From an uncultured Eubacteriaceae bacterium (lineage in GTDB: Bacteria > Bacillota > Clostridia > Eubacteriales > Eubacteriaceae), in the NCBI GenBank assembly GCA_937872065.1, contig CALMRA010000288.1, forward strand, positions 4,817-68,816: a stretch of DNA of 64,000 nt, read 5' to 3'. The notes beneath the pieces are model-generated. The model was not told where the DNA came from, made no database searches, and saw nothing but the letters and a program-made list of their open reading frames with translations. The position numbers and the translations under genes are program-made. Below are positions 32,991-36,938 of the stretch, in pieces (within the stretch, counting starts at the first letter, position 1; every line of letters begins with the position of its first letter).

Positions 32991-34634
<1,644 letters not shown>

Positions 34635-34662: not shown

Positions 34663-34688
34663 AAAGCCGGCAGAAGTGCCGGCTTTTT
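34663..34688 (+). terminator. terminator after pyrG
   Basis: 10-bp stem aaagccggca / tgccggcttt with a 4-nt loop and a T-run. Confidence 0.85.
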
Positions 34689-34752
34689 CAAAATCTGTGT
34701 TTATTTTTAATAAAATTCAAAAAAAGATTGCGGCAGACAAGTGTTTTTGGTA

Positions 34753-34919
34753 TGTGGATAACTGGTATTAAAGGAAGAAATGACGGCGAAATCTGTGGAT
34801 AAGCTTCATTTCAGCTGTGGATAGTGTGGATAACTGTGCATGAAACGCGCAAAGCGCGTAAAACAGGCATTTCACCTGTGGATGAAAAAAGCCCCAGTTA
34901 TTCACAGCGGTGTGGATTC
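34753..34919. promoter_or_regulatory. cluster of seven DnaA-box 9-mers
   Basis: Perfect TGTGGATAA at 34753-34761, 34794-34802 and 34825-34833. One mismatch: TGTGGATAG 34816-34824 (abuts the next box), TGTGGATGA 34877-34885, and TTATTCACA 34898-34906 (opposite orientation). Two mismatches: TGTGGATTC 34911-34919. Confidence 0.8.
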
Positions 34920-34979
34920 TGTTCAAAGCGGATAAAACGCAGTTTTTCCGTATAACAAGTGATTACGAAACGGGTGTTT

Positions 34980-36938
34980 ATGTCTGAATTTACAAAAAAC
35001 GTTAAGTACGTGAGCTGCGGATGTGCGCTGCCTGAAGTCAAGCCCGCGGACACGACTGCCAATACTGACTCGATTATCGAGCTGATCGGGCGGGCTTCGC
35101 ATGAAAAAATCGGGATCCTGCTGTTTCCGGAACTGGCGGTCACCGGCTATACCTGCGGCGATCTGTTCTTCCAGCGCGAACTGCAGGAGGATACCCACGC
35201 GGCGCTGTCACGTATTGCCGGGGCGACAGCCGGCACGGATATGCTGGTCTGCATCGGAGCTCCCCTTGAAGACCGCGGCCGTCTGTACAACTGCGCTGTG
35301 ATTATCCAGGACGGCAGCATTATCGGTGTCGTGCCGAAACGCTATCTCCCGGACAATCGGGAATATTATGAAAAACGATGGTTTACCGAAGGCGGAACGG
35401 GACCTGACATCACCGTCGCGGGTGTTTCCGTTCCCTTCGGAACCGATCTGCTGTTCAGGGACGGCGCCGATCCGTCTATCATCGTCGGTTCGGAAATCTG
35501 CGAGGATCTGTGGGCTCCGGCGCCGCCGAGCCAGGATATGGCGGCCGCAGGCGCGGTGATTATCCTGAATCCTTCGGCAAGCAACGAGACTATCGGAAAG
35601 GCGTCCTACCGCAGAGATCTGATCACACAGCAGAGCGCGCGGCTCGACTGCGCCTATCTGTATGCCTCCAGCGGCTTCGGAGAATCGACGACAGATCTGG
35701 TATTCGGAGGAGACGCGATCATTGCGGAGAACGGCAGGATACTCGCACGCTCGCAGCGGTTCTCGATGGAACCGGGGATTACGAAAGCGCAGATCGATCC
35801 CCAGCTGCTCCTTCACGACAGACAGATGCAGTCTTCATATCGGGATTACGAGGCGGCTCGGGCCTTCCGCTTTATCCCGTGTTCGATTACGGTTTCCGAT
35901 ACCATCGAACGCAGCATCGATCCGGCGCCCTTCGTTCCGGCGGATTCCGCAGAACGCAGCGAACGCTGTCTGGAGATCACCAGCATCCAGGCGACAGGTC
36001 TCGCCTCGAGGCTGCGTCATATCGGAAATGCTCCGATGGTGATCGGTGTCTCCGGCGGGCTTGATTCGACACTGGCGCTGCTGGTCTGCGCACAGGCTGC
36101 GCAGATGCTCGGTATGGAGCCGGAAAAGATCTATGCGGTGACGATGCCGGGCTTCGGCACGACCGACCGGACCTATACGAATGCGGTAAGCCTGATTCAT
36201 AAGCTGGGCGCGACGTTCCATGAGATTCCGATCGGTCCCGCGGCTTCTTCGCATCTGAAGGATATAGGCCATGATATCGAGATCCGCAACGAAGTCTATG
36301 AGAACGCTCAGGCCAGGGAACGGACTCAGGTTCTGATGGATCTGGCGAACGAAACGGGCGGAATTGTCGTCGGAACAGGCGACCTGTCCGAGCTCGCGCT
36401 GGGCTGGGCGACCTACAACGGCGACCATATGTCGATGTACGGCGTCAACTCGGGCGTACCGAAGACGCTGGTGCGTTATCTCGTCGACTGGTATGCGGAC
36501 CGCGGAGACGAGGAGCTGGCGGAGCTGCTTCACGATATTCTCGATACGCCGGTATCGCCGGAACTGCTGCCGCCTGAAAACGGAGAAATCGCGCAGAAGA
36601 CGGAGGATCTTGTCGGACCGTATGATCTTCACGATTTCTATCTGTTTCATTTCCTCAGGAGCGGATTTTCTCCGGAAAAGATCTTTGCGCTGGCAGTCCG
36701 GGCGTTCGAAGGAACCTATGACGATAAGACGATCGCCCGCTGGCTCGAAACGTTTTACAGACGTTTTTTCTCGCAGCAGTTCAAGCGCTCCTGTCTGCCG
36801 GACGGCCCCAAGGTGGGGTCCGTCACGCTCTCGCCGAGAGGCGACTGGCGGATGCCCAGCGATGCGTCGTCCCGCGATTATATGGCCAGGGCTGCGAAGA
36901 TACGCAGAAGCGTGGAAGAGGGCGCCGAATGCATCTGA
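34980..36938 (+). CDS. nadE: glutamine-dependent NAD+ synthetase
   Basis: N-terminal CN-hydrolase (glutaminase) domain plus a C-terminal PP-loop GVSGGLDST. ATG 34980 preferred over GTG 34959. Confidence 0.9.
   Translation: MSEFTKNVKYVSCGCALPEVKPADTTANTDSIIELIGRASHEKIGILLFPELAVTGYTCGDLFFQRELQEDTHAALSRIAGATAGTDMLVCIGAPLEDRGRLYNCAVIIQDGSIIGVVPKRYLPDNREYYEKRWFTEGGTGPDITVAGVSVPFGTDLLFRDGADPSIIVGSEICEDLWAPAPPSQDMAAAGAVIILNPSASNETIGKASYRRDLITQQSARLDCAYLYASSGFGESTTDLVFGGDAIIAENGRILARSQRFSMEPGITKAQIDPQLLLHDRQMQSSYRDYEAARAFRFIPCSITVSDTIERSIDPAPFVPADSAERSERCLEITSIQATGLASRLRHIGNAPMVIGVSGGLDSTLALLVCAQAAQMLGMEPEKIYAVTMPGFGTTDRTYTNAVSLIHKLGATFHEIPIGPAASSHLKDIGHDIEIRNEVYENAQARERTQVLMDLANETGGIVVGTGDLSELALGWATYNGDHMSMYGVNSGVPKTLVRYLVDWYADRGDEELAELLHDILDTPVSPELLPPENGEIAQKTEDLVGPYDLHDFYLFHFLRSGFSPEKIFALAVRAFEGTYDDKTIARWLETFYRRFFSQQFKRSCLPDGPKVGSVTLSPRGDWRMPSDASSRDYMARAAKIRRSVEEGAECI

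Follow-up and report, generated by a model that had tools for sequence, protein, structure and literature searches.

Why does a dense group of DnaA boxes lie between pyrG and nadE in an uncultured Eubacteriaceae bacterium, and what would it do there? Box clusters of Bacillus subtilis are arrays stably occupied by DnaA, some of which regulate the adjacent gene (PMC2533591, PMC3245932). Deletion of all six clusters leads to early initiation, and a single reintroduced copy gives a partial, dosage-dependent rescue (PMC3245932). The locus considered here lies in the window, by which we mean the whole 64,000-nucleotide stretch of DNA that was analysed (C288:4817-68816), taken from a genome of 2,549,488 bp in 315 contigs with 52% G+C. 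A first-pass annotation had proposed a DnaA-titrating or regulatory cluster, possibly one that places nadE under DnaA control, and had thought an origin-type element less likely.

Rescanning the spacer recovered three perfect TGTGGATAA boxes, three one-mismatch boxes and one two-mismatch box at 34753-34920, which confirms the array as first annotated, along with its run of five consecutive boxes in one orientation and the head-to-tail abutment of two of them. Boxes 1 (34753-34761) and 2 (34794-34802) are perfect forward-strand matches found by motif scan; box 1 keeps its position in G001, the sole congener having the locus, and in the alignment the two are spaced by 41 bp in both genomes. They are followed on the same strand by the abutting pair at 34816-34833, which is composed of TGTGGATAG (one mismatch, 34816-34824) and a perfect TGTGGATAA (34825-34833) and is the cluster's most conserved core. 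A search with the fifth base of the box left free (TTATNCACA) revealed an extra weak forward box that the annotation had lacked, TGTGCATGA at 34835-34843, with one mismatch to that relaxed word. Closer to the promoter lie the one-mismatch box TGTGGATGA (34877-34885, forward strand), the inverted box TTATTCACA (34898-34906, reverse strand; one mismatch to TGTGGATAA but perfect to TTATNCACA) and the weak two-mismatch box TGTGGATTC (34912-34920, forward strand), the latter read from the sequence. The nadE start (ATG at 34980) follows 60 nt after the last box, as had been stated. Box order and spacing are the same in the window and in G001, which has TGTGGACGA within a conserved block AAACAGGCATTT..CCTGTGGA at the position aligned to 34877-34885 and an inverted TTATGCACA at that aligned to 34898-34906. 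The sequence shared with the congener at 34860-34885, AAACAGGCATTT..CCTGTGGA(T/C)GA, extends beyond the box itself and includes a short CAGG/CCTG inverted repeat.

Two further features of the first-pass annotation, the palindrome ACGCGC-AAA-GCGCGT (34845-34859) and the A/T-rich tract (34689-34728), are both present in the window. Neither is conserved even in the congener, and hence they are probably not parts of the element: the palindrome is probably incidental, and the tract is probably the tail of a terminator plus spacer and not an unwinding element.

In the 2,549,488 bp scanned there are 23 perfect boxes in the whole genome, with concentrations around dnaA (5), on C155 (4), in the pyrG-nadE spacer (3) and on C71 (2). 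The Poisson probability of at least three perfect boxes in an 81-bp span is 6.5e-11, or approximately 1.7e-4 when summed across all genome positions, and the box cluster is therefore far beyond chance. As a measure of predicted binding we used the A value of Ishikawa, an affinity-weighted box density for which the cut-off A > 0.3 singled out the eight regions bound by DnaA in B. subtilis and no others (PMC2533591). Five regions of the present genome exceed this threshold, which was calibrated on B. subtilis and not on the present clade: the pyrG-nadE spacer (34794-34843, A 1.76, to which the weak box at 34835-34843 contributes), a site beside eno on C155 (0.66), the two halves of oriC, namely the dnaA-dnaN spacer (0.51) and the region upstream of dnaA (0.40), and a site upstream of a pyridoxamine kinase gene on C71 (0.37). 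With the highest A of the five, the pyrG-nadE spacer is predicted to be the strongest DnaA site in this genome, stronger than oriC, and it combines A > 0.3 with at least four closely spaced boxes, as expected of a DnaA-box cluster (DBC). Its box density is thus exceptional and not common across the genome. Only two abutting same-orientation box pairs occur in the whole genome, one at oriC beside the unwinding element and the other at 34816-34833. When the DnaA of this organism is compared with 1J1V, the structure of E. coli domain IV with DNA, residues R399, P423, D433, H434 and H439 are identical and T435 is replaced by Ser; the residues that contact the bases are conserved.

The cluster at C155:32664-32955, with four perfect boxes the second-strongest outside the origin, is flanked by eno, on the side of its 3' end, and by a convergently oriented ORF of 336 aa, an arrangement that is also kept in G007 (L137). 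The C71 cluster (C71:113-226) has two perfect boxes, and a weaker box group is found between a radical-SAM gene and thiC (C298:19685-19730).

To describe the relatives we refer to the window's family as f1, to its genus as g1 and to sister families in the same order as f3 and f4. The pyrG-nadE synteny holds across f1, and the spacer carries the box cluster in 20 of the 23 assessable f1 genomes, in seven genera and with A values from 0.40 to 4.29, so that relatives sharing this gene order have retained the cluster; it is also found in all four f3 and all three f4 genomes. Conservation in related genomes is a further property of a DBC. Mean pair identity, which we used as the measure of selection, is 0.87 in box columns versus 0.47 in non-box columns within g1, 0.90 versus 0.61 within g3, 0.85 versus 0.49 within g4 and 0.74 versus 0.23 across genera, a pattern that indicates purifying selection on the boxes. 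Boxes are mostly co-oriented with the genes (139 versus 20 inverted in f1, 42 versus 20 in f3 and f4), and the abutting pair is present in 22 of the 27 spacers of the three families, always in the same orientation; on this comparison it serves as the module's signature. The distance from the cluster to dnaA in five closed f1 genomes is 291-645 kb, corresponding to 12.8-15.8% of the chromosome, and the genes of the locus are co-directional with replication. The whole spacer has been lost in genus g7, which has small genomes and in which nadE abuts pyrG, and the cluster is hence dispensable in at least one lineage.

The pyrG gene of g7 has a peculiarity of its own, an ORF-less group II intron of approximately 640 bp inserted after about residue 469 (L127:1739-2382, from G008:C44; Rfam RF02004, 116 bits, and RF00029, 61 bits), with the same pattern in G016. 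Such a host gene is unusual for group II introns of bacteria, and the genus is the same one that is without the DnaA-box spacer. A separate observation concerns a 15-mer, CTTGACACAAGATAT, at the upstream edge of the cluster in spacers of g3, g5, g6 and g9 (L114-L121, L125, L126 and L128). It is confined to this spacer in each of those genomes, occurs twice in G006, has no consistent -10 partner and is absent from g1. A role as a regulon site, for example of an NAD regulator, was rejected given that the word occurs only in this spacer and is missing from g1.

The array is flanked upstream by pyrG (CTP synthase; 33003-34634, forward strand; NCBIfam NF003792/TIGR00337, E 3e-263) and downstream by nadE (glutamine-dependent NAD+ synthase; 34980-36938, forward strand; NF002730, E 7.5e-255), with trmB downstream of nadE. 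The nadE ORF can also be read from GTG 34959, and the start MSEFTKN is taken to be that from ATG 34980. Whereas pyrG is directly upstream of the cluster in f1, f3 and two of the three f4 genomes, the gene on the other side differs between families. In the sister families nadE is elsewhere, yet the cluster directly follows pyrG (four of four f3 and two of three f4 genomes), and the gene beyond it is rho, with a small ORF ahead of rho in one instance. The remaining f4 genome, G035, has pyrG and rho 13 kb apart, and there the cluster (six perfect boxes, A 2.05) is found with rho only, upstream of a small ORF and rho, and not after pyrG. The rho gene of f1 is located hundreds of kb from this locus and lacks upstream boxes. 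No cluster was found upstream of nadE at 79 other nadE loci of other Bacillota and Bacteroidota, after pyrG in 40 genomes sampled across the class, or at either pyrG or rho in families f5 and f2. These gene orders indicate that an ancestral module, pyrG-cluster-rho, arose in the common ancestor of the three families, survived rearrangements on either side and came to face nadE in f1. By the same comparison, the cluster tracks the downstream side of pyrG and not nadE, and is older than the pyrG-nadE junction. This corrects the first-pass annotation, and we reject a nadE-specific regulatory feature, given its absence from all 79 other nadE loci and its place after pyrG or before rho in the sister families. 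The small ORF between the cluster and rho in two f4 genomes (L161:542-1186 and L167 from ~997 onward) is Cys-rich; in G039 it encodes 214 aa and starts with M-x-TQFTIA.

Transcription signals were sought on both sides of the array. A likely intrinsic terminator of pyrG, GCCGGC-agaagt-GCCGGC followed by TTTTT (34663-34688, forward strand), was read from the sequence and is not listed by the automated scan; relatives have a comparable hairpin and T-run 3' of pyrG. Given this terminator, a separate promoter within the spacer would be required for nadE. One weak promoter-like sequence, TTCAAA-18-TAAAAT, is found at 34687-34716, within or at the A/T-rich tract, and a candidate nadE -10 hexamer, TATAAC, can be read at 34951-34956 (forward strand) with no convincing -35 before it; G001 retains this hexamer as TAATAC in the aligned block. 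Promoter scans of g1 gave no recognisable sigma-70 promoter adjoining the boxes. Four other genera (g2, g4, g6 and g9) have a TTGnnn-17-TATAAT promoter whose start is at -9 to +22 nt relative to the last box, and in g6 an inverted perfect box overlaps the -35 element TTGTTC by one base, the last base of the box being the first of the hexamer. Four of the six f3 and f4 spacers have a TTGACA-type promoter in the same place, before rho. A strict promoter scan gave almost nothing, and it was with the scan relaxed to TTG-type -35 elements that 23 matches were found versus 6 expected from shuffles. As no promoter is recognisable in g1, gating of a promoter in the window is argued by analogy with the other genera. 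A riboswitch or known RNA in the spacer was rejected, the Rfam matches being only sub-threshold. In the spacer of G007 (L115:~2180-2560), the promoter and nadE are separated by approximately 300 bp of additional sequence, made up of two direct repeats of roughly 150 bp each that are absent from the sister species.

We consider it probable, with some reserve, that the locus is a non-origin DnaA-box cluster with a dual role, holding DnaA and gating the adjacent promoter, here that of nadE. The array combines high- and low-affinity boxes, most of them in one orientation, with an abutting pair as its core, and DnaA-ATP would assemble on it cooperatively into an oligomer. Its position at 13-16% of the chromosome from oriC in closed relatives implies that the locus would be duplicated early in each replication round, and the core conserved activity would be the holding of DnaA, which would buffer the free initiator pool and restrain initiation as in the B. 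subtilis clusters. Because the array ends at the promoter, occupancy of the weaker promoter-proximal boxes at 34877-34920 should also modulate transcription of the downstream gene, which would be nadE, with trmB behind it, in the window's family and rho in the sister families. We infer the binding of DnaA to the cluster, its ATP dependence and the titration effect, and likewise both the existence and the sign of an effect on nadE, for which we lean to repression at high DnaA-ATP because the promoters of relatives are near-consensus. Two observations favour the dual role: the cluster outlived a change of its downstream gene, which speaks for the holding of DnaA as the selected activity, and its location right next to the promoter is constant, which speaks for gating of that promoter as well. 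Titration in B. subtilis needed several clusters and was dosage-dependent, so one cluster may contribute little. A bolder version, which is possible but doubtful, would have the array and promoter form a portable DnaA-gated expression cassette (ancestrally coupling Rho synthesis to the state of the initiator, and in f1 re-used to couple NAD+ synthesis to initiation), or the array serve as the main, datA-equivalent initiator sink with an affinity above that of oriC.

The array could instead be purely a transcriptional operator, with DnaA as a transcription factor only and no meaningful effect on initiation control. Such regulation is well documented at other promoters, but the 7-14 boxes and the top A value in the genome far exceed the known simple DnaA operators. 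The array is always located just 5' of a co-oriented gene and never between convergent genes; in many genera, although not recognisably in the window's own, a near-consensus promoter starts no more than about 20 nt away from the last box. Its family-wide persistence after the change from rho to nadE fits a target-independent function better, and an operator and nothing else is in our judgement unlikely.

The opposite simplification, in which the locus is purely a DnaA sink or inactivation site of the datA or gcp-ydiF type, promoter adjacency is incidental and nadE is unaffected, does agree with the independence from the identity of the downstream gene. A conserved cluster without a known transcriptional role also exists in B. 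subtilis, where a titration phenotype has been demonstrated (PMC3245932). The conserved relative distance from oriC in the five closed f1 genomes points in the same direction but may simply reflect conserved synteny, and the tight, repeated adjacency of the last box and the -35 element, including the overlap in g6, means that RNA polymerase could hardly remain unaffected. We therefore regard a sink alone as quite unlikely. That the repeats are functionless or bound by a protein other than DnaA is very improbable: although a locus-specific 15-mer in other genera points to a possible role of further factors, the word that recurs here is identical to the high-affinity box of the genome's own oriC, the base-contact residues of DnaA are conserved, the box columns are under selection and chance is excluded.

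With regard to replication initiation, the cluster is located outside the origin, as is typical of a DBC, and the earlier statement that it lies away from any dnaA gene was correct: dnaA and oriC are on contig C203 and the cluster is on C288, so that it does not adjoin dnaA/dnaN as is typical for origins of Bacillota. The genome's own oriC is of the two-part type, with boxes 5' of dnaA and, 3' of it, the abutting pair TTATCCACAGTATCCACA, GGCC, a run of TTA triplets and an AT-rich block, followed by dnaN. The pair at 34816-34833 is followed by GCTGAAATGAAGC and another box, with no GC block, trio repeat or AT-rich unwinding element, and unlike at oriC no DnaA-trio-like TTA/CTA periodicity was found beside the window boxes. 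GC skew is positive throughout positions 1-64000 with no turn at 34.7-34.9 kb, and pyrG, nadE and trmB are all on the forward strand, so the genes on both sides of the cluster are co-oriented and neither a sign change of the skew nor a divergence of gene orientation is seen. A secondary, cryptic or relic origin is thus exceedingly improbable and we reject an origin-type element, even though the pair resembles that of oriC, the box density is above that of oriC and an AT-rich tract, not conserved in G001, occupies the side on which one would look for an unwinding element. Taken with the density and the conservation, the skew and the location of oriC elsewhere support the original proposal of a titrating or regulatory cluster as opposed to an origin.

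The dual-role cluster that we favour resembles the B. subtilis clusters gcp-ydiF, yqeG-sda, ywlC-ywlB, ywcI-vpr, yydA-yycS and thdF-jag (PMC2533591, PMC3245932) in being intergenic, with at least four close-packed boxes and A > 0.3, in the origin-proximal part of the chromosome, usually beside a promoter, conserved among relatives and one of a handful per genome. It differs in its neighbours, as descriptions of the B. subtilis sites do not mention pyrG, nadE or rho, in a predicted affinity that exceeds that of its own oriC, in a location further out (the 13-16% given above) and in its occurrence in Clostridia-class anaerobes. E. coli datA likewise has non-origin high-affinity boxes away from oriC, and its early duplication is thought to restrain re-initiation; conservation of its position is described in PMC4585315 and PMC5010248. 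However, datA acts through IHF-dependent hydrolysis of DnaA-ATP and is not known as a promoter operator. Among DnaA-controlled promoters, which include B. subtilis dnaA, sda, ywlC and yydA, E. coli nrdAB and Pseudomonas aeruginosa gidAB-parAB at oriCII (PMC13438810), boxes touch or directly precede a sigma-70 promoter, as seen in the spacers of relatives, but most of these operators have far fewer boxes than the present array, and NAD-synthesis and rho genes are not reported as DnaA targets. The directly abutting same-orientation boxes are also like the oriC pair of the basal unwinding system, which unlike here is followed by a GC block, a trio repeat and an AT-rich unwinding element. A literature search gave no link of DnaA boxes with nadE, pyrG or rho, and no DnaA sites in these organisms, and the review PMC8203912 makes no mention of NAD.

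The pyrG-nadE cluster is a well-delimited, previously undescribed example of the known DnaA-box clusters and not a new mechanism. DnaA control outside model organisms is poorly known. To our knowledge, no DnaA regulon has been described in Clostridia-class anaerobes, and neither a DnaA regulon nor a titration site in the acetogen family of Eubacterium limosum and Acetobacterium woodii, organisms that are genetically tractable and of industrial interest. The locus offers a sharply defined and strongly conserved candidate, with the top predicted site of the genome, an oriC-like pair and natural loss in one genus. It also amounts to an evolutionary experiment set up by nature, with one array looking onto rho in some families but onto nadE in others, so that it can be tested directly whether such clusters are retained for holding DnaA or for regulating the neighbour. 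The replicative DNA ligase uses NAD+ as its substrate, and there are interactions between Rho and replication, both of which could, speculatively, provide a functional rationale. Gating of nadE or rho by DnaA, if it occurs, would bring NAD supply or global termination of transcription into the set of processes that are coupled to initiation.
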